Assembly (NCBI GenBank): GCA_043736395.1 | Contig: JAYTCQ010000354.1 | Span: forward strand, 3,723 to 67,722 | DNA length: 64,000 bases | Reading direction: 5' to 3' | DNA from: Blastocatellia bacterium | Lineage (GTDB): Bacteria > Acidobacteriota > Blastocatellia > RBC074 | Shown here: positions 6,675 to 37,747 of the stretch, piece after piece | Layout: each line of letters starts with the position of its first letter | Position numbering within the stretch: position 1 is the first letter of the stretch | Translations under genes and position numbers: made by a program | The notes under the pieces: generated by a model | What the model was told of the DNA's origin: nothing | Databases searched by the model: none | Seen by the model: only the letters and a program-made list of their open reading frames with translations

Positions 6675-8300
6675 TTAGTTTCCGTTCAGTGAAAAGGCGT
6701 AGAACTTGTTGTTCCCCGTGTAGCCCGGTATGCCCAGATGGGCGTACCCGGCCCCCCAGAACACTGTGCCGTTCACGATGGTGGCCCCGGCGTTCACGGA
6801 TGATCCCCCGATAAAGTTCCAAAGGATATTTCCTGTGGCGGCATTCAACGCAAACATAGTTGGAGTGCTCGCATCGCCTGCCATGGAGGCTGCATACACG
6901 ACTCCATTGGCCACGGACATGGGGCCGAGGTCAATTGCGCCGTTGGGGTCTGGTCTGTGCCAGAGAATCACGCCCGTAGCAGGATCAAGCGCAGCCCAGG
7001 AACCCGCATAACCGCCTGCCGGGGAAGGAAGACCATAAAAATTAGCGAGCTGCACATAGATTCGCTTGCCATCCGTTGCTGATCCCCATTCCATGCCGCC
7101 TAAAGAAGACCCCGGTCCAACCTGCGTTTGCCACAGTGTGTCACCGGTCTTTGGATCAAGTGCGAAGTAGATGCCGCTTTTCTGCCCCGCGCCGAGAATC
7201 GTCTTAGGCCCCTTGGAGGTTTGGTATGTGATTAAGTTTGGGGCAGAGGCGAAATCGTAGTCAGGGCCAGAATTGGTTGGACAATTCGTAAACGGTGGGA
7301 TAAAACAGGCCACGTTCCAGTCGTCACTGCCGTCTATCACACCAACGGCCGTCTGATTCCACGTTACAAACTTCTTTGCCCATTTCAGCTTACCGTTCCC
7401 CGTATCCAGCGCAATGACCGAATCCACGTAATTGTCGGGAGCATTGCACGAGGCCGCGTTGCCTCCTTGAGCAATACAGTCCCCATAGTTCGTGCCTGGG
7501 ATACTCGATTTAGCTTCGGGTTTCGGATGGCTGTAGTTGTTTCCGGTACTGACAAAGATCGTGTTGTTGTTTGCGTCCACAACCGGATTGCTGCCCCAGA
7601 CGCCGCCGCCACTGTATCCTTGGGGAACAGTATAGGTCTGCCATTTAATCTTGCCGGTGGCAGCATTGACAGCAACCACACTGCCTCTGGCCTTACAGCA
7701 CTGGAAGGCCGGATTAAAACCTGCGATGCCTTCTTCCAACGATGCCACACCCGTATATACAGTACCGCCGACCACCGTCGGGGAAGTTGTAATGAGCGCA
7801 AAGGGATCATTCGCTGGCGATTCCAGTTGTGTTTTCCAGACCAATGCTCCTGTCGTTGCATTGATTGCCAGCAACCAGGCTCCTTCCTGGGTGCCGAGAT
7901 ACAACGTGCCATTCACCACGGCTGGGGTGGTACGGGAGTGCGTGATTCCAGGCAAGCCGTAATCGGAAAGCTGATGCGACCAAAGCGCGTGCCCATTAGC
8001 AGTATTCAACGCAAACAGATTGCCGCCCCAGTCGGGGAAATAGGCAACACCATTCACGACAGCGGCGCGGGCTGACACATCGCCTCCAGTAGTAAATGTC
8101 CACTTCGGTAGCAGTTGACTCACGTTAGCAGTTGAGATGGTCGTTTCCGTCGCATTGGTCGCGGTATTCGACGCATTTTGCCCAAACATAGGCCAATCGG
8201 CAGTCTTTGGTTGAGCGATTGCTGCCCCAAAGCTGCATAACATTAAGAATCCGGCGATGAACCTTATTGAGTGTTCACGAGAACGTAGAAGGTTGTTCAT
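6675..8300 (-). CDS. Secreted PQQ-like beta-propeller repeat protein.
   Basis: Signal peptide; repeated '...G.(V/L)YA.....G.L.ALNA.TG..LW' blades (e.g. 'NLFALNTANGHALW', 'LLAINATTGALVW', 'VVAVNAATGKIKW', 'MFALNAATGNILW'). Confidence 0.6.
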   Translation of the reverse strand: MNNLLRSREHSIRFIAGFLMLCSFGAAIAQPKTADWPMFGQNASNTATNATETTISTANVSQLLPKWTFTTGGDVSARAAVVNGVAYFPDWGGNLFALNTANGHALWSHQLSDYGLPGITHSRTTPAVVNGTLYLGTQEGAWLLAINATTGALVWKTQLESPANDPFALITTSPTVVGGTVYTGVASLEEGIAGFNPAFQCCKARGSVVAVNAATGKIKWQTYTVPQGYSGGGVWGSNPVVDANNNTIFVSTGNNYSHPKPEAKSSIPGTNYGDCIAQGGNAASCNAPDNYVDSVIALDTGNGKLKWAKKFVTWNQTAVGVIDGSDDWNVACFIPPFTNCPTNSGPDYDFASAPNLITYQTSKGPKTILGAGQKSGIYFALDPKTGDTLWQTQVGPGSSLGGMEWGSATDGKRIYVQLANFYGLPSPAGGYAGSWAALDPATGVILWHRPDPNGAIDLGPMSVANGVVYAASMAGDASTPTMFALNAATGNILWNFIGGSSVNAGATIVNGTVFWGAGYAHLGIPGYTGNNKFYAFSLNGN

Positions 8301-8542
8301 TTTTACTCTCCTGGGTGAAGATTGAACATAATTTCATTGGGAAAAGGGGGGAGTTGAGAATGAATAGTTCACATCTGAAAAATTATTGATTGAGATGAAG
8401 TTAACCAACTTACACTAGTGGAATTTAAGGAAGTTGGCAAGATCACGGTTAAATCAAACTCAGACCGTTTCAATCGGTACCTCAACCCAGACGGTTGACG
8501 CGTGACCAATTGAAACAGTCTGGTGAAAGATTAATTTTTTAC

Positions 8543-28214: not shown

Positions 28215-28922
28215 ATGATAAAACGTAGTATTAGTTTAGTGATCATCTTAACTTTAGTGATGGCATCCTTTGGAAATTACAAAAATACGGAAGCCAAAGC
28301 TGGTGGACAATTACTCACCGGAATTTTATCAAAGATGCAGACCGCCCATCGCGGACTGCGTTCGATGCGTACTTCGATCACTCAACAACGTCGCAATCCG
28401 CAGATTGGTTCAACCGATACTGATTACGGAACATTGATTTATAAACCCGGCGGCAAGGGTAACAGCCGTCTGCGCATTGATTACACTAAGCCCGATCAAA
28501 AAAGCGTTTCCGTCATCGGAGAAAGCCTGGTGTTTTATCAACCAAGAATTAATCAGGTTTTCAAATCTACTTTATCAAAAGCAGCAAAAGGTAAAACCGG
28601 AAGCTACGCCGGATTAATCGGGTTGGATAGTTCACTGGAATCTTTGACTAGAGAATATAACGTCGAGTACGTTAAAGATGTCCTCGTCAACGGCAAAGAA
28701 ACTTCGCTGTTAAGCCTGACACCAAAAGGTAGTAGCCCATTCAGCAAAGTTGAATTATGGGTAAGCAACGAATTCTGGCTGCCCGTGCAATACCAAATGT
28801 ATGAGCGCAATGGCGATTCGACGTTGGTGAAATTTACTGGCATGGAAGTCAACCCCAGCATTAACGAAACTGCTTTCAAAATCAGTTATCCATCCAGCGC
28901 CAAACTGGTTGATAAGCTGTAA
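28215..28922 (+). CDS. LolA-like outer-membrane lipoprotein carrier / DUF4367-type protein.
   Basis: Start at internal ATG (MIKRSISLVIILTLVMA signal) after GGAG; beta-rich, with LolA-like '...LVFYQP...VELWVSNEFWLPVQYQMYE'. Confidence 0.5.
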   Translation: MIKRSISLVIILTLVMASFGNYKNTEAKAGGQLLTGILSKMQTAHRGLRSMRTSITQQRRNPQIGSTDTDYGTLIYKPGGKGNSRLRIDYTKPDQKSVSVIGESLVFYQPRINQVFKSTLSKAAKGKTGSYAGLIGLDSSLESLTREYNVEYVKDVLVNGKETSLLSLTPKGSSPFSKVELWVSNEFWLPVQYQMYERNGDSTLVKFTGMEVNPSINETAFKISYPSSAKLVDKL

Positions 28923-28944
28923 GCGAAAAAATAATAAGTAAAAA

Positions 28945-28985
28945 TAAAAGGCTGAAGATTTTATCTTCAGCCTTTTATTTTTATC
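28945..28985. terminator. Bidirectional rho-independent terminator (between the LolA-like gene and the end of the gvp cluster).
   Basis: aaaaGGCTGAAGATtttaTCTTCAGCCttttattttt. Confidence 0.65.
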
Positions 28986-29007
28986 CTTACTGAAAAAATT
29001 CTGCACT

Positions 29008-29337
29008 TTATGCTGTTGCACTATTTTTTTGCAGAAGGGCTTCAAGCCTTTCCATGCGCTCCTCAATTTTCGTGAGAGTGCTCGCGTCGGCAGGCGGTAA
29101 TGATTTTTGCGCACTAAAAATAGGATGATTCACCCACCAGTCCATTCCCATTTCCTGGGCTTTATCAACGGAGCAAATCACCAGGCGAATTTGAATGGTA
29201 AGCAGTTCAACATCCGCCAAATTTACTTTTATGTCACCGGCAATCACGATGCCTTTGTCCAGAACACGTTCCAGAACATCAGCGAGAGTTGAACTGTTGA
29301 CGGCGTGCGTCATTGTACTATTTCGTGGTTGTATCAT
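29008..29337 (-). CDS. gvpJ: Gas vesicle protein, GvpA/J/M family (GvpJ-like with C-terminal extension).
   Basis: 'LADVLERVLDKGIVIAGDIKVNLADVELLTIQIRLVICSV' hallmark GvpA-family core; GGAG RBS. Confidence 0.8.
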   Translation of the reverse strand: MIQPRNSTMTHAVNSSTLADVLERVLDKGIVIAGDIKVNLADVELLTIQIRLVICSVDKAQEMGMDWWVNHPIFSAQKSLPPADASTLTKIEERMERLEALLQKNSATA

Positions 29338-29360
29338 TTTTTCTCCTGCACCTTTTGAGG

Positions 29361-29723
29361 CTAAAGCAATTTTCCGAGTGGTCCCAAATCCAGATTGAGG
29401 TCTTCTGGTTGTAATCCAAATTCCAAACGCAGCTTGTCAATTTCCTGCGTCTGCCGCATCAACGCTACGCCAAGGCGTTCAATACTTTCATCGTCTAATG
29501 TTTCCGATTCGATGCGCCGAATGGCTTGTCGTTCTAACAATTCATGCAAAAGCTTGATGATCGTTAACGCCAATCGTCCCAGCCCATTTTTCACATTTTT
29601 TTCGTCAAGTTCCAATCGTGAATTGCTGCCCAGACCCGAAAATAAATTCTTATCTGCCTGCAAAATACGAGCAAAGTCGCTAACAGTATCGGCGGTAGCA
29701 ATTGATGATATTTCAGAATTCAT
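29361..29723 (-). CDS. gvpK: Gas vesicle protein K.
   Basis: 'GLGRLALTIIKLLHELLERQAIRRIE' conserved GvpK core. Confidence 0.8.
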   Translation of the reverse strand: MNSEISSIATADTVSDFARILQADKNLFSGLGSNSRLELDEKNVKNGLGRLALTIIKLLHELLERQAIRRIESETLDDESIERLGVALMRQTQEIDKLRLEFGLQPEDLNLDLGPLGKLL

Positions 29724-29735
29724 TTGTCTTTTCCT

Positions 29736-29969
29736 TTACTCAATGGTTGATTGCACCTTTAAGGCTCGACCACCTTCAACTGAAGTCAGAACCAGTTGTA
29801 ATCCCAAGTAAATCAAATCTACATTCGCGACTGAAATTGTGACTTCGCCCACCACGACTGCGCCTTTATTCAATACACGATCAAGCACTTCGCACAGTGA
29901 AACATTTCCCTGCTCGTTCAGTGCTAAATTCGAAGCCAAAGCCGTTGTGTTGTAATTTTCAAAATTCAT
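29736..29969 (-). CDS. Small GvpA-family protein (GvpS/GvpM-like second structural homolog).
   Basis: 'SLCEVLDRVLNKGAVVVGEVTISVANVDLIYLGLQLVLTSVE'; its start abuts the ArsA-like stop codon. Confidence 0.7.
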   Translation of the reverse strand: MNFENYNTTALASNLALNEQGNVSLCEVLDRVLNKGAVVVGEVTISVANVDLIYLGLQLVLTSVEGGRALKVQSTIE

Positions 29970-31913
29970 TTATCGCCCCGCCGTTCGAACCATTTCGTAT
30001 TGATAAAGTGCTTTTCCCAATTCGCCAAGTTTTGACAAGCCGCGCAATTCACCCTGACGCGGAATGACGGCTTGCGGAATTCTTGGGAATGACACTTGAA
30101 ACTTCGTCTTAACAATCGCCTCGCGTGCGGCTAATGCATGGCACAAAGTGCAATCCTGTTGCGGTGTGGTCAGGTTAATAAAAATTCCTCCCACCGTGAT
30201 TTTCATTTGCTCGCACGATGCCAGCAAATCTCGTGTTTCGGCGTACGCCACTTCGGTTGGAATGCTCACGACAGAAATTCGCGCCTTGGTTCCATCAGCT
30301 AACAAAGTGCGTAATTTCTTAAGGTTTTTCGACATTTCTACTAATAACTGTGAGAGTCGCGGCAGGCGCAGCATGTTGCGATACTTCAGGAAAACACCAA
30401 AAAAAGCCTTCAACCATTGATCTATCAAAGTGGGCATTTCCAGCAAACGGATTAAATGTCCGGTAGGAGCCGTGTCGAGAACTACCACATCGTATTTCCC
30501 TGATTGATGCAGCTCAATCACGCGCAACAACGCCATCACTTCATCCAGTCCCGGCGGAGCCAGATCAATCATTCGTTCCATGACTTCGCGGTCAAAAGTG
30601 AAGTCGAGGTTTTGCATCGCAGCACTCAGGAATTTTTTCAGATCGTGGGCGTATTCTTTTTGCAAAACTTCAAATTCTGCATTCGCGTTAATTTCGAGAA
30701 CGCTCAAATTTGGGGTCACTGCTACGATTTCTGCGCCGATAGGTAGCGCAAAACAATCTGCCAATGAATGCGCCGGATCCGTCGAACATAGCAAAACTTT
30801 TTTGCCTTCTGTTTGTGCAAGTCTCATGGCTGTTGCACACGCCAGTGTAGTCTTTCCGACTCCGCCTTTCCCCGCAAAAAATAACAGGTTGGCTTTCGGC
30901 ACAGGTACGTTGCTGAAGGTGGGAAAATCATTAACCGAAGCCTTCACGCTCACCACCTCCGGCATCAATGTTAGCGGTTCCACGTCATCCCAAAAATGTT
31001 CGAGTGAATTCACTCCTCGCATTTCTTCCGGCTGCAATTCTGAGCGCCAGAAATTATATTCTTCATAACTTTGCAGCATTGCGCGAATTTCAGAATTTTG
31101 ACGCGCGTACGCTTCACGACAAGTCGCACAATCATTGTGTGGAAATAACTGATTGACGACGATCTCACTTACCGGGATTTGCAGGCGTTGTAAGGCCGTG
31201 AGTAAATCTTTTGTCTCATTGATGCTCAAAGCTTCTGCCAGCATTACTGGTACGAAGCGACACAGCTGTACATCACACAATAAGGCTTCCAGATTTTTGA
31301 CAGAGGAAGTGATCGTCAACAAAAATTGATCTAGTTCATCGCCGTAATAATTGCCACTGAACAATTTTTTCATGTAGCGATTTTTGGCTAACAGCGCATC
31401 CAGCATTCCTAACCAGCGATGCAATAATTCAGGCATTCCAAGCAATCGCAGCGTGTGCCCAGTTGGCGCAGTGTCTACAATCACGCAATCATAATTTTCA
31501 GCCGAAACCCATTCTGAGATTTCCAGAAATGCCATCAATTCATCTAAGCCAGGCAACGAAAGTTCCAGAAATTGATTGATGTCTGAATCGTCCAGAAACG
31601 TTCCGCGCTTGGCAATTTCGCGCAAATGTTCGGCGTGAAGTGCTTTGAATTTTGTCAGACATTCCTGTGCGTTGAGTTCAATGATCGTCAAATTTGACGG
31701 GATCATGCTCGCCTGTTCTCCCAATCCATCCATCAAAGAATGCGCTGGATCGGATGAAGCAATCAGGTATTTTTTTTCAGGAAAAGTTTTTGCGAGATAC
31801 AGCGCAGTCGCCAAAGCAGACGTAGTTTTCCCAACTCCACCTTTGCCACCAAAAAGCAGTAGGTGTAAATTTTGATCGTTGAGAAATGCAGGGCGCATTG
31901 GCTGATTAATCAT
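29970..31913 (-). CDS. Tandem two-domain ArsA/Get3-family P-loop ATPase embedded in the gvp cluster.
   Basis: Two halves, each with 'GGKGGVGKTT' deviant Walker A (LLLFGGKGGVGKTTSA; LLFFAGKGGVGKTTLA) and 'DTAPTGH' switch motifs. Each half carries a CxxC pair (DCATC; DCTLC) in the position of metal/client-binding Cys in Get3/ArsA. Confidence 0.8.
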   Translation of the reverse strand: MINQPMRPAFLNDQNLHLLLFGGKGGVGKTTSALATALYLAKTFPEKKYLIASSDPAHSLMDGLGEQASMIPSNLTIIELNAQECLTKFKALHAEHLREIAKRGTFLDDSDINQFLELSLPGLDELMAFLEISEWVSAENYDCVIVDTAPTGHTLRLLGMPELLHRWLGMLDALLAKNRYMKKLFSGNYYGDELDQFLLTITSSVKNLEALLCDVQLCRFVPVMLAEALSINETKDLLTALQRLQIPVSEIVVNQLFPHNDCATCREAYARQNSEIRAMLQSYEEYNFWRSELQPEEMRGVNSLEHFWDDVEPLTLMPEVVSVKASVNDFPTFSNVPVPKANLLFFAGKGGVGKTTLACATAMRLAQTEGKKVLLCSTDPAHSLADCFALPIGAEIVAVTPNLSVLEINANAEFEVLQKEYAHDLKKFLSAAMQNLDFTFDREVMERMIDLAPPGLDEVMALLRVIELHQSGKYDVVVLDTAPTGHLIRLLEMPTLIDQWLKAFFGVFLKYRNMLRLPRLSQLLVEMSKNLKKLRTLLADGTKARISVVSIPTEVAYAETRDLLASCEQMKITVGGIFINLTTPQQDCTLCHALAAREAIVKTKFQVSFPRIPQAVIPRQGELRGLSKLGELGKALYQYEMVRTAGR

Positions 31914-31931
31914 ATTTTGCGCTCATCAAAA

Positions 31932-32333
31932 TCATTCTTCATCACTGTCATCTTCATCTTCTTCATTTTCTTCGTCGTCATCGTCTTCTACCTCTTCATC
32001 CTCTTCATCACTGTCGTCTTCGTCTTCATCGTCGTCCTCATCGTCATCGTCACCATCATCTTCGTCTTCGTCATCGTCGTCCTCTTCATCGCCCTCATCA
32101 TTCGCCGCAGACTCTTCCAATGCGCTCAATCGCTCTAACAATACTGCTTCCTGTTCATCAAATTCGTCTTCGGTGATTTGTCCTGTTTCGAGCATCATGT
32201 ACAGCTCGCTCAGCGCAGTAGTAATTTGCTCAGAGGCGTTGGTTATTTCCTGCTCTGCCGCATTGCGGATTTCTCCCAGCAGCCAAAAAAAGCCGTGCAT
32301 GGGAGCCAGAAAAATGTCATCAACTAAAAACAC
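31932..32333 (-). CDS. gvpG: Gas vesicle protein G with a ~55-residue poly-Asp/Glu C-terminal tail.
   Basis: 'FLAPMHGFFWLLGEI...ITEDEFDEQEAVLLERL' fits the GvpG pattern (LL.P..G..W.GE ... I.EEEF..E..LL). Predicted GTG start (alternative in-frame ATG 11 codons later). Tail 'DEGDEEDDDDEDEDDGDDDDEDDDEDEDDSDEEDEEVEDDDDEENEEDEDDSDEE'. Confidence 0.65.
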   Translation of the reverse strand: MFLVDDIFLAPMHGFFWLLGEIRNAAEQEITNASEQITTALSELYMMLETGQITEDEFDEQEAVLLERLSALEESAANDEGDEEDDDDEDEDDGDDDDEDDDEDEDDSDEEDEEVEDDDDEENEEDEDDSDEE

Positions 32334-32362
32334 AAAAAACTTCTCGACGATTTCACAAACAA

Positions 32363-33127
32363 CTAAAATTCCAGGGCGACTTCGACAAAGTTATACGGCG
32401 CCCACGGCCCGTTAAAATCAAAGGCAAAGTTGTCATCAAACAATTCCGCTGCCGCATAAACCTGTTGCTCAAAGTTTGCTAACGAAGACCGATCCACCAG
32501 GCAAACCAGATTCATCACTTCGCGTTCCGTCCGGCAACGATTCACTTTGATTTCCGCGCAGGAATTCGTGAGTGCGTCCTCGACCTTCTCCGTGAACTCT
32601 TCCCTATCACTCGCATGCAATTGCTCAAAGAGGCGTCCAACAGCCAATTTGTCATCCTGACGCGGTTCACCTTCGCCACTGAATAAACGATCCCGCGCAG
32701 CCAGTAATTCAGGATGTAAATTGACGAAATATTCAAAAATATTCGGCACGTCCCACGTGACGCGAACGCCCATTTCTACTTTGTCTGCCACGCGTTCTAA
32801 TTGCGAAGCGAGTGCCTCGGAATTTTTTGTGAGTACTTCTTCGACGGCTTCCTGTGAATTCGCAGCGACGCCGAAAGCCATTGGTAAAACGGACAAATTT
32901 TCAGCTAATAATTTTTTCAGGACTTCCTGATGTGCGGCGAGATTTTTTCGCTGCGGCAGGATTTTTTCGCCGGAAGAATCACTCACCACAGCGGCGAATT
33001 TGCCGTTGGAAATTGTGTAGACGTGCTGACCGTTTAGACCACAATTTCCTAATTCCAGGTGGTCTTGGGCGGCGATGACGGCGTAAAGATATTTAGAACT
33101 GCGAGCGGCGGCGGCTTTGACTGACAT
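32363..33127 (-). CDS. Gas vesicle protein GvpF/L family (paralog 1).
   Basis: 'KYLYAVIAA' N-terminus and C-terminal 'NGPWAPYNFV' hallmark of GvpF/L; start at internal ATG with GGAG. Confidence 0.8.
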   Translation of the reverse strand: MSVKAAAARSSKYLYAVIAAQDHLELGNCGLNGQHVYTISNGKFAAVVSDSSGEKILPQRKNLAAHQEVLKKLLAENLSVLPMAFGVAANSQEAVEEVLTKNSEALASQLERVADKVEMGVRVTWDVPNIFEYFVNLHPELLAARDRLFSGEGEPRQDDKLAVGRLFEQLHASDREEFTEKVEDALTNSCAEIKVNRCRTEREVMNLVCLVDRSSLANFEQQVYAAAELFDDNFAFDFNGPWAPYNFVEVALEF

Positions 33128-33291
33128 GGTTTTGGGTCTCCTGTAAAACCTGCCACACAAACGGTCAGAACAAAGCGAAAACAAGGAAGGAAAACTGAAT
33201 GAATCAAAAGTTGCTCTGTTACTGAATCGCGGTGGCTCGGCGAATTTGGGTTACTGCTACTAACAACAATTTCTGTTGTTACGATCAAAAA

Positions 33292-33504
33292 TTATTTTGC
33301 TTCGGTGGCATTTCGGACTTGAGCATTCCATCGCTCAATCAACCACCAACGCCTTATTTCACGGTGCTGTAAATCAATTTCAGCATTACTATTTTCCTGC
33401 TCAGCCAGATGATCCTGCGGGACACCCGTACTCGTAGGAACCGCGCGAAACGATTTGCGATGACGATTGGTTTTGATGTGCGATGCGGTTTTTAATTTCA
33501 GCAT
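33292..33504 (-). CDS. Hypothetical small Arg/Trp-rich protein inside the gvp cluster.
   Basis: ATG start; translationally coupled to the upstream small gene (stop 33507). No known motifs. Confidence 0.3.
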   Translation of the reverse strand: MLKLKTASHIKTNRHRKSFRAVPTSTGVPQDHLAEQENSNAEIDLQHREIRRWWLIERWNAQVRNATEAK

Positions 33505-33506
33505 GA

Positions 33507-33830
33507 TTAGTATTTCAGCTTGAATGAATTATTTGCAGTGGCACTCACGCTTTTGGCGATTTGCTTGCTTCCTTCGACTGGAAGATCGTAATCGGCTGCC
33601 GCCAATTGTTTGAGGATGACAGCTTTTTCCGCATCAATTTCGCGGAAGCGTGTCCGCAATTCCTGCAATCGTTCCATCGCGCTGTCTTTTTCTTTGTTGC
33701 GACGGACTTTCTCCATTTCAAGTGCCGTCAATTTCATAAATGCTTTGTATGGACTAAAGCTACTTTCGTTACGATTGGAATGTGTACGAATGCTTTGTAA
33801 CCCGCGTAGCGTACTTTGACGTGATTTCAT
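33507..33830 (-). CDS. Hypothetical small coiled-coil protein inside the gvp cluster.
   Basis: Strong AGGAGG RBS; heptad-like 'MERLQELRTRFREIDAEKAVILKQL'. Confidence 0.45.
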   Translation of the reverse strand: MKSRQSTLRGLQSIRTHSNRNESSFSPYKAFMKLTALEMEKVRRNKEKDSAMERLQELRTRFREIDAEKAVILKQLAAADYDLPVEGSKQIAKSVSATANNSFKLKY

Positions 33831-33843
33831 TTCAGCTTTCCTC

Positions 33844-34800
33844 CTAACGACAAAATTTATGAATTAAAACATCAACTGTTTTGGGAGTAATGGTTTTCGA
33901 AGCTTTCTCGCCTTTGCCACCATCACGGCTTAGCACATCACGACAAACCCAACGGAACAATTCGTCATTGATCCGCGCATGCGAATCACGTGCAGCAATC
34001 ACGCGTGCAATCGCAATCGCAGCGCGAATTGTTGGATACGTTTGATCGTTACCGAGTGCTCGCAGTTCGTCTATGATGTTAATGATGCTGGTGGCGTCTT
34101 CGAGTTCAATGCCTGACTTCGCCATCGTGACAGCGATTTCTGTTTCGCGGTCATAATGTCCCAAATCAATGGTAATCATTCGATCTAACAACGCATCCTG
34201 CGTTTTATGGACACCGGCGTATTCTTCAGGATTTGAGGTGAAAATTGCGTGAAATTCTGGATGAACATTCATGTAGCCTTCGCCTGAGCGACGCAGCTTC
34301 GGCAAGTTCAAAATGCGCTCCGACAATACGCTGAGCAAAGCATTATTGGCTTCGGCTGGCGAGCGATTAAATTCATCGTAAATTAAAGTGTTACCATCTC
34401 GACAGGCCATCGTCAGGCGGCTGTCTACCCAATAACTTTTGACTTCATCCTGCGTTTTCACGACAGAATGAATAAAATTATCCACTAACGTAGAGCGACG
34501 ATAACCGGAGTCACGACCAATTAAATCAGCCGAACCGAATTCATCATCACCGTGAATCAGTGTGACCGGACGCGCTAATTGCGCGGCAACATGAAAAGCA
34601 AGCGTCGTCTTACCTGTTCCCGCCGGTCCGGCAAAATGTACCGGAAATCCAGCTTGCAAATAAGCGAGTGCTCGCTCAACGACGTGCGCAATTTGTGGTG
34701 TACTCACAAAACCTGAACTCGGTTCAAGTTGAAGATTTTCGTTCTCAGACTTCGTCCTTATCAAATCAGGAGAAGTTGCTGTAGAGGCGGATGCAGACAT
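33844..34800 (-). CDS. gvpN: Gas vesicle protein N (AAA+ ATPase of CbbQ/NirQ/GvpN family).
   Basis: Walker A 'GPAGTGKTT'; 'TLIYDEFNRS' Walker B region; length and order typical of GvpN. Confidence 0.85.
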   Translation of the reverse strand: MSASASTATSPDLIRTKSENENLQLEPSSGFVSTPQIAHVVERALAYLQAGFPVHFAGPAGTGKTTLAFHVAAQLARPVTLIHGDDEFGSADLIGRDSGYRRSTLVDNFIHSVVKTQDEVKSYWVDSRLTMACRDGNTLIYDEFNRSPAEANNALLSVLSERILNLPKLRRSGEGYMNVHPEFHAIFTSNPEEYAGVHKTQDALLDRMITIDLGHYDRETEIAVTMAKSGIELEDATSIINIIDELRALGNDQTYPTIRAAIAIARVIAARDSHARINDELFRWVCRDVLSRDGGKGEKASKTITPKTVDVLIHKFCR

Positions 34801-34855
34801 GCGTGGTTCTCTTGGTTGTTCTTTTCAGGCAAATATCCTGCAAAAAAATTTAGGC

Positions 34856-35605
34856 TTAGCCGGCTTTTGCGGCAGCCAATTCATGTTCAAATTCGCGGCG
34901 AAGCTTTGCGATAGTTTCGCCCTGAACATCTTCGATATGCTTGGAGACGACTTCAGCGGCCATTCTGCTGGCTTGTTCAGCGGCAGCGCGGCTAGCTTCT
35001 TCCAACCGCTTTCCAGCTTCGTTGGTTACGCGTTCGACGGCTTGCTCAACTTTGCGCGCTTTTTCAGCTCTGAGCACGGCATCAGCTTTCGCTTCTTCTA
35101 CAGCTTTCGAAGCTAACGTTGCTCTGGTTTCCGAAAGGGATTTTCCTTTAGTACGTGGCGCAGCGGCGGCAGCTTTGGCAACTGGCGCAGTTACAGCAAC
35201 TGGTCTGCTTGTGGCAGGCAAGGCAGGCTGATTCCACATCGCGCGCGCACCTGCCAGATCTTCCTGATTTTCTTCGCGGATGGCAGAAACTTCACTCTTC
35301 AATTCAGAGACAAATTCTTGCCGATCTTCTTTCGTAGTGACCGCCATTTCTGCGTGAGCAACTCGAAAGTCTTCCTGCATCGTCGCGACCTCACCAACGA
35401 GATTGGTGACGAATTCGACCCGCTCCGATTTTGATTTTTCAGCCATCTCGGCATGGTCAACACGAAAGCCTTCTTGCATCGTGACGACTTCTGCTTTTAA
35501 TTCCTGATTTTCAGCCGACAGTCTTTCGATTAACTCTCCGCGTTCGACACGCAAGTCGGCCATTTCTTCAACCAGCCGTTTCATATCATCGGTCAAGCGT
35601 CCCAT
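34856..35605 (-). CDS. GvpC-like gas-vesicle outer-layer protein candidate (33-residue tandem repeats plus Ala/Lys-rich coiled-coil tail).
   Basis: Two adjacent 33-aa repeats 'EVVTMQEGFRVDHAEMAEKSKSERVEFVTNLVG' / 'EVATMQEDFRVAHAEMAVTTKEDRQEFVSELKS'. Sits immediately downstream of gvpA, as gvpC does in cyanobacteria. Confidence 0.5.
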   Translation of the reverse strand: MGRLTDDMKRLVEEMADLRVERGELIERLSAENQELKAEVVTMQEGFRVDHAEMAEKSKSERVEFVTNLVGEVATMQEDFRVAHAEMAVTTKEDRQEFVSELKSEVSAIREENQEDLAGARAMWNQPALPATSRPVAVTAPVAKAAAAAPRTKGKSLSETRATLASKAVEEAKADAVLRAEKARKVEQAVERVTNEAGKRLEEASRAAAEQASRMAAEVVSKHIEDVQGETIAKLRREFEHELAAAKAG

Positions 35606-35659
35606 TCGATTTGCTCCTTAACTTGCACTGATTCAGGCAAAATCTTTGCTGCGTAAATT

Positions 35660-35702
35660 AGTTAAAAAAATTCCATTGACGGGAAGGAGCAAAGCTCCCT
35701 CG
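35660..35702 (-). terminator. Possible partial terminator/attenuator between gvpA and the gvpC-like gene.
   Basis: On the minus strand: GAGGGAGC-uuug-GCUCCuUC hairpin followed about 10 nt later by UUUUUUU; non-canonical spacing. Confidence 0.3.
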
Positions 35703-35733
35703 CCGACAAAGGAAATAAAAACGTTCAGTCGTT

Positions 35734-35952
35734 TTAAGCCGGTGCTGCTGCGCTGGAAGTTAATCCAATAGCTTCGGCGTACTTTAAATAAGTTTCGACC
35801 GAGGCAATCACGACACGTGCTTCAACTGACAGTAATTCAATACCGACGAGCGAGACCTTAACCCAAGCATCAATGACGATACCTTTATCAAGAATACGAT
35901 CTACGACTTCTGCCAGACTCGATGAATCCGTTGACTTCGCTATTTTAGCCAT
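35734..35952 (-). CDS. gvpA: Gas vesicle structural protein A.
   Basis: '[64 protein letters not shown]', near-canonical GvpA. Start at internal ATG with AAGGAG RBS; the ORF-track N-extension is rejected. Confidence 0.9.
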
Positions 35953-36145
35953 ATTTTCTCCTTTATGATTTTCATACTCCGGGTGGGAAAAGCTGAACAC
36001 ATCAGAAGGATGAGAAAGTCATCCCAACCACAGCTTGCTAAATCCTACTTGCAGATTTAGTGCCACAATCGGAAGGACTACAAAATATTTTTTCTGGGAG
36101 TTTTTTTGATAGCGTTGATAGACAAATAACTATTACTTCTATGTG

Positions 36146-36862
36146 CTATTTGAGTTTAGGCAGAAGCATCGCAGCAGGTAAATTTTCTGTCATCACAAAG
36201 TTGTAAGGAGGCCACGGCCCACTCGCTGAAAGCTTAACAGATTGCGGCACTATCAGGTGTCGCAACTTGTCATTCCAGGCTTCAATTTCCGTGCGTCGAA
36301 GCAAAAAATATTGCGAACATAACCAGCCATCTTCGAACCTTTTTACTTCTGTTTTTTGACGTTTGAATAACCCATCCAAAGGCGCACAGACCTCTGTCAT
36401 CATTGCCTGAAATTCGGTTGAAGGATCTTCGTAATGCCGCCGCCGTGCCGCCAGATATGCTCGACCTGAAGACACGGGTTCCGGTTCACTGACAACAATA
36501 TTCCCAATTGCTTGCGGTACAGAAATCAAAAATCGAAGCCCCATTTCAACACAATCTTCCAGTTCATCAAGGAGCGTTTCATACTGCGCCTGATGCTTCG
36601 TCAGGAAATTCATGAGTTGCGCTTCGTTATCAAACAGACAGCCGTACCGCATCGGAATCACTGTGTGTTCACGATGAAAATCTGCCACGACTTTTTCAAA
36701 TGATAATAATTGCTCAATGCTTGGAGTCGCAGAATTTTCACAGGCAGAAATAATCGCCGTCAGATTATTATTCGAGATAAAAAATACTTCTGTAGACACA
36801 GAATTCACGGAATGGATTTTCTTTTCAGAGTTGCGCAACACAGCGTAGAGCAGCAGTTTCAT
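36146..36862 (-). CDS. Gas vesicle protein GvpF/L family (paralog 2).
   Basis: 'MKLLLYAVLR' ... C-terminal 'SGPWPPYNFV'; ATGA overlap with the upstream paralog. Confidence 0.8.
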   Translation of the reverse strand: MKLLLYAVLRNSEKKIHSVNSVSTEVFFISNNNLTAIISACENSATPSIEQLLSFEKVVADFHREHTVIPMRYGCLFDNEAQLMNFLTKHQAQYETLLDELEDCVEMGLRFLISVPQAIGNIVVSEPEPVSSGRAYLAARRRHYEDPSTEFQAMMTEVCAPLDGLFKRQKTEVKRFEDGWLCSQYFLLRRTEIEAWNDKLRHLIVPQSVKLSASGPWPPYNFVMTENLPAAMLLPKLK

Positions 36863-37671
36863 GCACTTTGCTCCTTGGCTAAATTTGGAGAAAAACTATA
36901 CGGCGGCCACGCTCCGGACATCGTAAAAACAAAGCCTTTTTCTGCGTATTTCGAATTGATGCTATCAACGCGCAGTCGAAAATCTTCGCGAGATTCTTGT
37001 GGAATTAAAAATGCCCAATTCAAAATTGCTTCAAGTTCGTCGTCAGAATTCGTAACTTTTCGTGCTCGAAAATCAACGGCGGATTGACTCAGCTCCTGCG
37101 CAATTTGTACGCAGATTTCTTGTATCCATTGATTTAATTCCTGCTCTACCGCCGCCTTGATTTTTTGCTCTTGAAAATAGCGCAGCCCCGGAGAAATTGC
37201 GCCGAGCTGTTCGTCCTGTTCAGCTAATTTTTGATCCAACAATCGCTGTCTGGCTGCGACACGATTGATGCTTCCCTTGACTGAAAATTCCTGCTTGTTA
37301 TTGATGTGATGCAGGAATCCAAAAATTGTTCCGTGTTGTGTTTGAAGAAAATCTGTGACGCCGGAAGCCGTAGAAAATAACGTACCAAATCGCGCTGGTA
37401 AAACGGGAGCTTGACGCAGTTGCTCTTCGATGACTGCTTCGTGTTGCAAGGCTCGCGGAGCAATCCAGTTCAAATCTTTCATCAATTCTTCCGCTTCCGC
37501 ACCAATGAAATCAGTCAGTGGAACTTCGCTAACAATTGCGGTCAACGAATTGTATTGAAGAGCGAATAAAGGGCTGCCATCATCAAAGCCCACGCCTTGA
37601 ACTTCCGGCAGCTCTTTCGTCAGAGAAATACAAAAAAGATAAATTGCTTTGGAGGGTTGGTTGTTCGTCAT
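36859..37671 (-). CDS. Gas vesicle protein GvpF/L family (paralog 3).
   Basis: 'KAIYLFCISL' ... C-terminal 'SGAWPPYSFS'. Confidence 0.8.
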   Translation of the reverse strand: MTNNQPSKAIYLFCISLTKELPEVQGVGFDDGSPLFALQYNSLTAIVSEVPLTDFIGAEAEELMKDLNWIAPRALQHEAVIEEQLRQAPVLPARFGTLFSTASGVTDFLQTQHGTIFGFLHHINNKQEFSVKGSINRVAARQRLLDQKLAEQDEQLGAISPGLRYFQEQKIKAAVEQELNQWIQEICVQIAQELSQSAVDFRARKVTNSDDELEAILNWAFLIPQESREDFRLRVDSINSKYAEKGFVFTMSGAWPPYSFSPNLAKEQSA

Positions 37672-37747
37672 AAAATTCAGTTACAAAATGCAGCGGGTAC
37701 TGCACAAGTAACGAGAGTAATTTCTTCCGCGAAGATGGATGAATTTG

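Follow-up and report, generated by a model that had tools for sequence, protein, structure and literature searches.

GvpC sets how stiff gas vesicles are and the pressure at which they collapse and is a handle for engineering acoustic reporter genes. In Anabaena, GvpC sits on helix alpha2 of the shell protein GvpA, and one of its 33-residue repeats (49.5 Å) spans four GvpA subunits (50.8 Å) (Huber et al., PMC9994262). In Serratia sp. 39006, where gvpC lies between gvpA1 and gvpN, vesicles of a gvpC deletion mutant kept their size but collapsed at 0.14 instead of 0.43 MPa, and gvpC was described as conserved in beta-, gamma-, and deltaproteobacterial clusters (Tashiro et al., PMC4982088). Here, we describe the gene found at the same position in a 64,000-nucleotide (nt) stretch of DNA from a Blastocatellia bacterium (contig JAYTCQ010000354.1 of assembly GCA_043736395.1), which is referred to as the window throughout. 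This gene (Table 1) probably encodes an outer-surface gas-vesicle protein of the GvpC type, belonging to the same family as the strengthening GvpC of Serratia.

Tandem 33-residue repeats encoded between gvpA and gvpN

The open reading frame (ORF) begins 128 nt after gvpA and lies just before gvpN, and an identical protein with the same neighbors was found in six metagenome contigs. The original prediction, made from the letters of the window without database searches, held that two tandem 33-residue repeats lie immediately 3' of gvpA and that their period and gene position mimic cyanobacterial GvpC. The repeats and the placement between gvpA and gvpN were both recovered here. When the protein was compared with itself (BLOSUM62, 33-residue window), the best score was 94, at an offset of 33, against a mean of 31.5 (standard deviation, 4.9; maximum, 50) for the best score at any offset in 300 shuffled sequences. 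The two repeats are identical at 20 of 33 residues and 63 of 99 nucleotides, and their differing codons comprise 9 synonymous and 13 nonsynonymous changes. The pair goes back to an old duplication that selection has preserved at the protein level, which explains why Tandem Repeats Finder detected no repeat in the DNA. The segments flanking the pair (residues 6 to 38 and 105 to 124) were not significant as extra repeat copies.

The remainder of the protein had been described as an Ala/Lys/Glu-rich helix, and both composition and structure prediction agree with this description. The C-terminal half contains 25% Ala, 17% Glu, 10% Arg, and 9% Lys and is predicted to be helical, with a hydrophobic moment that peaks at 3.7 residues per turn. 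A reading of this helix as a degenerate second repeat array was also considered, for which phmmer gave 6.8 bits, a score equaled by 4 of 200 shuffles; this result was marginal, and the reading was not adopted.

A large family without a curated model occupies the gvpC slot

A profile of the repeat region was searched against 1.84 billion cluster representatives and yielded 908 matches at E ≤ 1e-3, a number that falls to 340 at E ≤ 1e-10. A word-indexed search for relatives returned five only, all labeled "hypothetical." Family members follow a common plan in which an N-terminal cap (MGxLTDDMTRLRxEI..LR..R) is followed by 1 to 10 repeat units with the consensus xVAxMQAGFRxAHAEMARKTKAERxAFVSGLKx, a DLAGARxAW.G motif, and a variable tail. 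Residues M1, G2, R3, L4, T5, M8, L11, and R22 of the cap and A118 and W124 of the closing segment are invariant in alignments A1 and A2, and at least 90% of 150 family sequences retain M1, M8, L11, and R22. A motif of the MGxLTDDM type, which none of 120 TypA proteins has, occurs at 65 of 155 family N termini, and among the sequences examined it was found only at these genes. The window protein, which starts with MGRLTDDMKRL, carries the signature MGxLT[DE][DEG]M with L11 and R22, matches the repeat-unit profile, and has the end motif.

Repeat units in the family come in two principal lengths. The spacing from unit to unit was 33 residues in 181 cases and 40 residues in 93, with other spacings rare, and the 40-residue unit corresponds to the shorter one extended by a single heptad, in which the "F.S.LK." segment is duplicated. 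Only 33-residue units occur in 60 proteins and only 40-residue units in 18, and 44 proteins are mixed, often with the two lengths alternating. The tails are more diverse: 62 of 150 members end in an HHH_5/DUF4332 domain (for example, P0001 to P0004 and the protein encoded at L001:10001-11116), while others carry a charged Ala/Glu/Lys/Arg helix, as in the window, or a short basic stretch. Members with no C-terminal module include Methylococcales proteins of 160 to 164 residues and P0025. The HHH tail of P0001 also matches C-terminal extensions modeled for the phasin PhaH, ribosomal proteins L21 and S2, and NuoE. As a nucleic acid-binding part of a vesicle coat, the HHH module might anchor these organelles to the nucleoid.

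Using a genome scan with one genome per species, 47 loci were identified in Thermodesulfobacteriota/Desulfobacterota, Rokubacteria, Acidobacteria, Methylococcales (Methylobacter, Methylomonas, and Methylovulum), Schekmanbacteria, and Salinisphaeraceae. In 41 of these loci, the family gene is flanked directly by gvpA on its upstream side and by gvpN on its downstream side; of the six without both flanks, four are cut by contig ends. A gene order kept in so many loci across phyla marks the family as a component dedicated to gas vesicles in the gvpC slot, and the synteny argues strongly for the GvpC-like role that had been predicted for the window gene.

A tblastn search with the N-terminal 127 residues found no match in a plasmid collection. 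Three plasmids carry other proteins at or near this slot. Those of Methylocella tundrae (L052:2731-3474; 21.8 bits with the broad family hidden Markov model [HMM], with a bias of 29.8) and Spartinivicinus ruber (L053:3068-3361; 9.3 bits with a small profile) lie between gvpA and gvpN, are labeled "hypothetical," and have in common with the family only an N-terminal helix and, at the end, the motif R..(A/I)W.G; they may have diverged far within the family or be additional proteins that came to occupy the slot independently. On Octadecabacter arcticus plasmid pOA238_160, a 208-residue hypothetical protein encoded just before gvpN (L056:2318-2944) resembles no GvpC type, and no internal repeat was seen in it; gvpA lies 1.3 kb from this gene, with a gene on the opposite strand between them.

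Probable relationship to Serratia GvpC

The GvpC of Serratia was compared through its primer-derived ends, from which nine N-terminal and five C-terminal residues can be recovered. The gvpCF primer ends in AAGGAGAATCCTATGGG, and the reverse complements of primers gvpC_5R and RTGVL2 are GGATGCTTTACAGACGGT and GCTTAACAGACGGTATGGC, respectively. Combined, the three primers give ATG GGA TGC TT(T/A) ACA GAC GGT ATG GC, which translates to MGC(F/L)TDGMA. This start fits the family signature MGxLT[DE][DG]M, and it can be set beside the N termini of P0025 (MGGLTDGMTRL), P0066 (MGCLTDDMTRL), and the window protein. The slot proteins of Methylococcales, which like Serratia are gammaproteobacterial, score 81 to 102 bits with the family HMM.

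The neighboring genes extend the comparison. In Methylobacter tundripaludum, the gene after gvpN (L044, about 8000-8309) contains MAISTRP, which is the primer-deduced N terminus of Serratia GvpV; thus, the whole A-C-N-V block corresponds between Serratia and the family loci. The 107-residue product of the gene after gvpN in the window matched no family model and is probably of the GvpV type. With a putative gvpV assigned through the Methylobacter match, the window order gvpA-gvpC-gvpN-gvpV is Serratia-like, and the downstream order gvpN, GvpV-like gene, gvpF, and gvpG likewise matches that of Serratia sp. ATCC 39006, in which gvpC occupies its slot in the arrangement gvpA1-gvpC-gvpN-gvpV-gvpF-gvpG (Ramsay 2011; Tashiro 2016). 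Set against the primer-derived ends of the Serratia protein, the window protein differs in being acidobacterial and in carrying a Pro/Ala linker and a 90-residue Ala/Glu/Arg/Lys helix. Most likely, the family is Serratia-type GvpC, as judged from the nine residues compared, and stiffening would thus have been shown experimentally in one of its members.

Predicted structure and a model for binding to the GvpA shell

An AlphaFold2 model of the window protein was built with a 150-sequence alignment. It contains one uninterrupted helix from residue 2 to residue 124 (predicted local distance difference test score [pLDDT], 94 to 98), which at 1.5 Å for each of its 123 residues is about 185 Å long, and a second helix spanning residues 159 to 248 (pLDDT, about 90 to 95). 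No entry of the PDB was found either by sequence (E ≤ 10) or with the model by Foldseek, as expected for a single long helix.

Within the family unit, the conserved residues V2, M5, F9, H/R13, M16, R/L24, F27, and L31 recur every 3.67 residues, which lines them up as a single stripe on a straight helix. Of the conservation variance in the family unit, 54% is carried by the ninth harmonic (3.67 residues per turn), a value reached by none of 5,000 permutations; in the cyanobacterial GvpC unit, the share is 49%, a value reached by 2 of 5,000. In both cases, the 33-residue unit amounts to nine straight helical turns bearing a single conserved stripe.

The GvpA encoded in the window shares 82% identity with that of Nostoc sphaeroides, and the helix alpha2 motif is identical, so the receptor surface for GvpC is the same. 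In the mechanism we propose, the 123-residue rod would follow a GvpA rib, its conserved stripe facing alpha2, and cover about 15 GvpA subunits with one 33-residue unit for every four. Bound to the rib in this way, the rod would make the shell stiffer and increase the pressure at which it collapses. As a hypothesis only, the 40-residue unit (60 Å) could fit about five GvpA subunits, a fit that is good at the inner spacing of 12.1 Å and less good at the outer spacing of 12.7 Å. A lineage-specific module would be formed by the linker together with the second helix; it may reach or cross-link a neighboring rib, another GvpC, or another vesicle.

Comparison with curated GvpC families and other coat proteins

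Several results weigh against the assignment of the window protein to GvpC. It had been expected to resemble GvpC profiles, and this expectation failed, as PF01304, TIGR02641, and PF05465 gave no match to the protein at E ≤ 1. PF01304 was also absent from the 25 families most matched by 150 relatives (E ≤ 0.01) and gave no match to six further relatives at E ≤ 0.1, and among the relatives tested none was seen to match any of the three models. The positive controls were recognized, with Nostoc sphaeroides GvpC matching PF01304 at 7.5e-48 and TIGR02641 at 3.2e-39 and Halobacterium GvpC matching PF05465 at 3.4e-74; the window protein is not a member of either curated GvpC repeat family. In addition, the link to Serratia rests on nine primer-deduced N-terminal residues together with synteny. 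A plain Eisenberg hydrophobic moment of the N-terminal repeats in the window has no clean peak near 98 to 100 degrees (a periodicity of 3.6 to 3.7), and the conserved stripe is partly polar. The hydrophobic-moment spectrum fails to reveal the stripe because the stripe mixes His, Arg, and Ser/Thr with Val, Met, Phe, and Leu.

The 33-column repeat profile of the family, built from 188 units, was aligned with one of cyanobacterial GvpC, built from 11 distinct units of seven PF01304 proteins. Using hhalign, a score of 28.6 (probability, 86%) was obtained, with H/R13, A17, F27, and L31 of the family placed on R19, A23, F33, and L4 of GvpC. Random permutations of the GvpC columns gave a mean of 7.1 and a maximum of 15.4. 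Permutations that preserve the 11-residue periodicity, by shuffling only among the three 11-residue subrepeats, gave a mean of 20.5 (standard deviation, 5.5), and 10 of 150 reached the real score, a further point on the unfavorable side. The broad family HMM scored 22.8 bits on Nostoc GvpC, with a composition bias of 17.9. As the similarity falls within the range of the periodicity-preserving controls, common descent with classic GvpC is unproven; on these sequence comparisons, the likeness appears real but explained by shared design. Although the GvpC profiles were not matched, the family, the synteny, and the Serratia relationship lead to the same functional call.

The window protein resembles cyanobacterial GvpC in its tandem 33-residue helical repeats, its slot between gvpA and gvpN, its 3.67-residue conserved face, and the identical alpha2 surface of its GvpA partner. 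The repeat consensus of cyanobacterial GvpC, YKELQETSQQFLSATAQARIAQAEKQAQELLAF, differs from that of the family, and cyanobacterial GvpC has no MGxLTDDM cap, DLAGARxAW end motif, 40-residue units, or C-terminal modules. Haloarchaeal GvpC (PF05465) shares with the family the gvpA-gvpC-gvpN slot, two repeat length classes, and a separate C-terminal domain. Its repeats are about 32 and 38 to 39 residues long, as opposed to 33 and 40, and the two sequences are not alike, with an hhalign probability of 1.4% for the family against Halobacterium GvpC and no HMM match. Haloarchaeal GvpC is also very acidic and has a zinc finger-like globular C terminus, unlike the window protein. In gvpC of Halobacterium salinarum pNRC100 (L055:1667-2815), the best self-offsets were 38, 71, 70, 72, 39, and 32, indicating that its repeats alternate. 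By analogy, this alternation of about 32 and 38 to 39 residues is at least suggestive with respect to the idea that unit length is matched to GvpA.

Apolipoproteins, perilipins, and phasins similarly use long amphipathic helices of 11-residue subrepeats that lie flat on a surface, and some family members share their HHH tail with PhaH. The Apolipoprotein A1/A4/E model (PF01442) was matched by 65 of 150 relatives at E ≤ 0.01 (best E, 1.7e-12), and the window protein did not match it at the gathering score; this likeness is a resemblance in helix design, not membership. Unlike the surfaces coated by apolipoproteins and phasins, which are lipid or polyester, the surface here is a protein lattice, and the gene context is strictly that of gas vesicles.

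The protein had been put forward as GvpC-like and as occurring outside cyanobacteria. The host is indeed an acidobacterium and not a cyanobacterium, as the TypA encoded in the window is 93% identical to that of metagenome-assembled genomes of Blastocatellia/Acidobacteria. The occurrence itself is not new, haloarchaea and Serratia sp. 39006 being known to have GvpC; the original prediction was right in function and wrong in the novelty it implied. A more speculative view, which we regard as doubtful, is that three slot families with no detectable relationship to one another (PF01304, PF05465, and the MGxLTDDM family) might independently have arrived at a lattice-matched ruler, a straight helix whose stripe of conserved residues recurs at intervals of 3.67 residues, with units quantized by the spacing of GvpA (33 residues for about four subunits and 40 for about five), or else that the MGxLTDDM family might be the missing link to a single ancient origin of GvpC. 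On this view, the exchangeable C-terminal modules (helix-hairpin-helix domains and charged helices) would offer a ready-made set of tools for linking vesicles to other structures in the cell.

A stem-loop between gvpA and the GvpC-type gene

A possible attenuator hairpin had been predicted at 35660-35702. A strong stem-loop whose core is covered by this interval was confirmed; no sign of a leader-peptide attenuator was seen, and the element looks instead like a leaky intrinsic terminator, for which the term attenuator is apt in a loose sense. It has the form of a Rho-independent terminator, with a GC-rich stem followed by U7 downstream of a stop codon. Its folding energy is -23.3 kcal/mol (z = -4.5), and none of 200 shuffles was as stable; folding of the whole spacer from gvpA to the ORF gave z = -2.9. 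A simple pattern scan for promoters and terminators did not list this hairpin, the probable reason being bulges in the extended stem. Rfam, applied at gathering thresholds, gave no family in the window.

A scan that is weak for Acidobacteria detected no sigma-70-like promoter in the interval from the hairpin to the ORF, so the downstream genes probably depend on read-through. Under the proposed mechanism, the stem-loop and U7 would act as a leaky terminator, with most transcripts stopping after gvpA and a minority reading through to the GvpC-type gene and gvpN. The leaky stop would probably set the ratio of GvpA to GvpC, giving the excess of GvpA that the shell needs. Such an arrangement would be like the known gvpACN system, in which transcription stops right after gvpA and gvpA mRNA greatly exceeds the gvpACN cotranscript, and unlike it in that the window element is predicted to be of the bacterial Rho-independent type.

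Among related loci with a spacer of 50 to 320 nt, the best local hairpin falls more than 2 standard deviations below dinucleotide shuffles in 31 of 33 (median z, -4.9), and across loci the structure of the spacer stem-loop is conserved while its sequence is not. The spacers between gvpA and the GvpC-type gene across phyla (L005 to L051) contain a GC-rich stem-loop with a median best local energy of about -31 kcal/mol, usually without a U tract.

It is possible, if less probable than a leaky terminator, that the stem-loop is a processing or stability element that protects the 3' end of cleaved gvpA mRNA, with a separate promoter driving the GvpC-type gene and gvpN. A T-rich tail follows the hairpin in only 4 of 40 related spacers, yet the hairpin is conserved, which favors a stability element and tells against termination; the perfect U7 in the window and the negative promoter scan point the other way. 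In GC-rich lineages, the stem-loop may mainly be a stabilizer of the RNA 3' end. Whether terminator or stabilizer, much more gvpA message than gvpC-gvpN message is expected.

Alternative functions of the GvpC-type protein

An unlikely alternative to a stiffening rod is an assembly chaperone or scaffold, an amphipathic rod that would capture GvpA either prior to its insertion into the growing shell or as this takes place, perhaps hand it to GvpN, and be absent from mature vesicles. The gene invariably adjoins gvpN, which encodes an AAA+ ATPase, and haloarchaeal GvpC was found by split green fluorescent protein to bind many accessory Gvp proteins and to enhance GvpA dimerization (PMC9501494); moreover, the only direct tie between the family and vesicles is the Serratia phenotype. 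That phenotype is itself structural and not one of assembly, as vesicles of the Serratia gvpC mutant are of normal size and only weaker (PMC4982088), and a fixed repeat length of 33 or 40 residues with a conserved stripe fits a periodic surface better than it fits monomers.

Rather improbable as the principal role is that of a vesicle organizer that clusters or tethers vesicles, for example, to the nucleoid, with the repeat rod as a mere anchor and the C-terminal module as the functional part. The swapping of HHH_5/DUF4332 domains, charged helices, and basic tails between lineages would fit this role, as would the resemblance of the P0001 tail to PhaH, another organelle-coat protein, and the flexible linker and 90-residue second helix of the window protein. 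Many members have no such module, which places the conserved core function in the repeat rod, and the Serratia phenotype is mechanical. An organizing role is compatible with the GvpC-type reading as an added function.

That the protein is a generic apolipoprotein- or phasin-like coiled coil unrelated to gas vesicles, with its repeats and position coincidental, is very improbable: the Apolipoprotein A1/A4/E matches among relatives, the unmatched GvpC models, and the empty Foldseek search would allow it, but the gvpA-X-gvpN order across several phyla comes near to refuting it, the window protein has no apolipoprotein match of its own, and its N-terminal signature is common to Serratia GvpC. The interpretation as a stiffening GvpC remains the preferred one.

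The gas-vesicle cluster and its neighbors

The window carries a complete gas-vesicle cluster that includes the expected stiffener gene, which is an ordinary result for such a window. The features are listed in Table 1 in the order of the coding strand. A Desulfobacterales locus (L001) shares with the window the accessory CDC48-like and ArsA-like ATPases in addition to GvpN. Directly upstream of the cluster are four codirectional minus-strand genes (40456-45784), and the same four-gene arrangement lies upstream of the gas-vesicle cluster in metagenome contig L002. One of the four encodes a bilin reductase; bilin synthesis adjoining a buoyancy organelle in a nonphototroph could point to light-controlled flotation.

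TABLE 1 Features of the gas-vesicle cluster and its upstream neighbors in the window
Feature	Position	Strand	Basis or remark
ABM monooxygenase gene	45476-45784	minus	Upstream of gas-vesicle cluster
Ferredoxin-dependent bilin reductase gene	44658-45464	minus	PF05996, 7.6e-26
Gene for 1178-residue protein	41100-44636	minus	No Pfam match
Gene for 209-residue protein	40456-41085	minus	No match
Gas-vesicle cluster	28755-40453	minus	Blastocatellia acidobacterium
HSP20 gene	39899-40453	minus	First in coding-strand cluster order
CDC48-like double AAA+ ATPase gene	37748-39895	minus	After HSP20 gene
Two gvpF/L genes	36859-37671 and 36146-36862	minus	After CDC48-like ATPase gene
gvpA, major shell protein, 72 residues	35734-35952	minus	NF006874, E = 3.7e-39; PF00741, E = 3.6e-17
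Intrinsic-terminator-like stem-loop	Stem, 35671-35714; U7, 35664-35670	minus	20 nt after gvpA stop, 58 nt before GvpC-type start
Shine-Dalgarno sequence of GvpC-type gene, AAGGAG	35614-35619	minus	8 nt before ATG; read from sequence
GvpC-type gene, 249 residues plus stop	34856-35605	minus	ORF list; family profile search
Family-specific N-terminal helix, residues 1-38, signature MGRLTDDM...L...R	35492-35605	minus	Alignment columns
33-residue repeat 1, residues 39-71, EVVTMQEGFRVDHAEMAEKSKSERVEFVTNLVG	35393-35491	minus	Self-comparison; repeat-unit HMM, E = 3.5e-16
33-residue repeat 2, residues 72-104, EVATMQEDFRVAHAEMAVTTKEDRQEFVSELKS	35294-35392	minus	Self-comparison; repeat-unit HMM, E = 1.2e-18
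Closing segment, residues 105-124, end motif DLAGARAMW at residues 116-124	35234-35293	minus	Continuous helix ends here
Pro/Ala-rich disordered linker, residues 125-158	35132-35233	minus	pLDDT about 47-51, without secondary structure
C-terminal Ala/Glu/Arg/Lys-rich helix, residues 159-249	34859-35131	minus	Variable module of the family
gvpN, AAA+ ATPase	33844-34800	minus	TIGR02640, E = 3.1e-101; directly downstream of GvpC-type ORF
Probable GvpV-type gene, 107 residues	33507-33830	minus	After gvpN; homologues follow gvpN in nearly all 47 loci
Gene for 70-residue protein		minus	Between 107-residue gene and gvpF
gvpF	32363-33184	minus	After gene for 70-residue protein
gvpG	31932-32333	minus	After gvpF
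ArsA-like ATPase gene	29970-31913	minus	After gvpG; double ATPase
gvpJ-type gene		minus	Before gvpK
gvpK	29361-29723	minus	Between the two gvpJ-type genes
Second gvpJ-type gene		minus	End of cluster order

Implications for the GvpC family

The finding is useful beyond the window, as it concerns a large GvpC family that has no curated model and in which the repeat unit is limited to two lengths, 33 and 40 residues. Outside cyanobacteria and haloarchaea, the slot gene is labeled "hypothetical protein" because neither Pfam nor NCBIfam has a model for this family. A definition based on the N-terminal signature, the 33- and 40-residue units, the DLAGARxAW motif, and the variable modules would let hundreds of clusters be annotated in Thermodesulfobacteriota, Acidobacteriota, Rokubacteria, and methanotrophs. 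The family also represents new and diverse GvpC scaffolds for engineering, and its two discrete unit lengths suggest a testable rule, namely, that the length of a repeat corresponds to an integer number of GvpA subunits.

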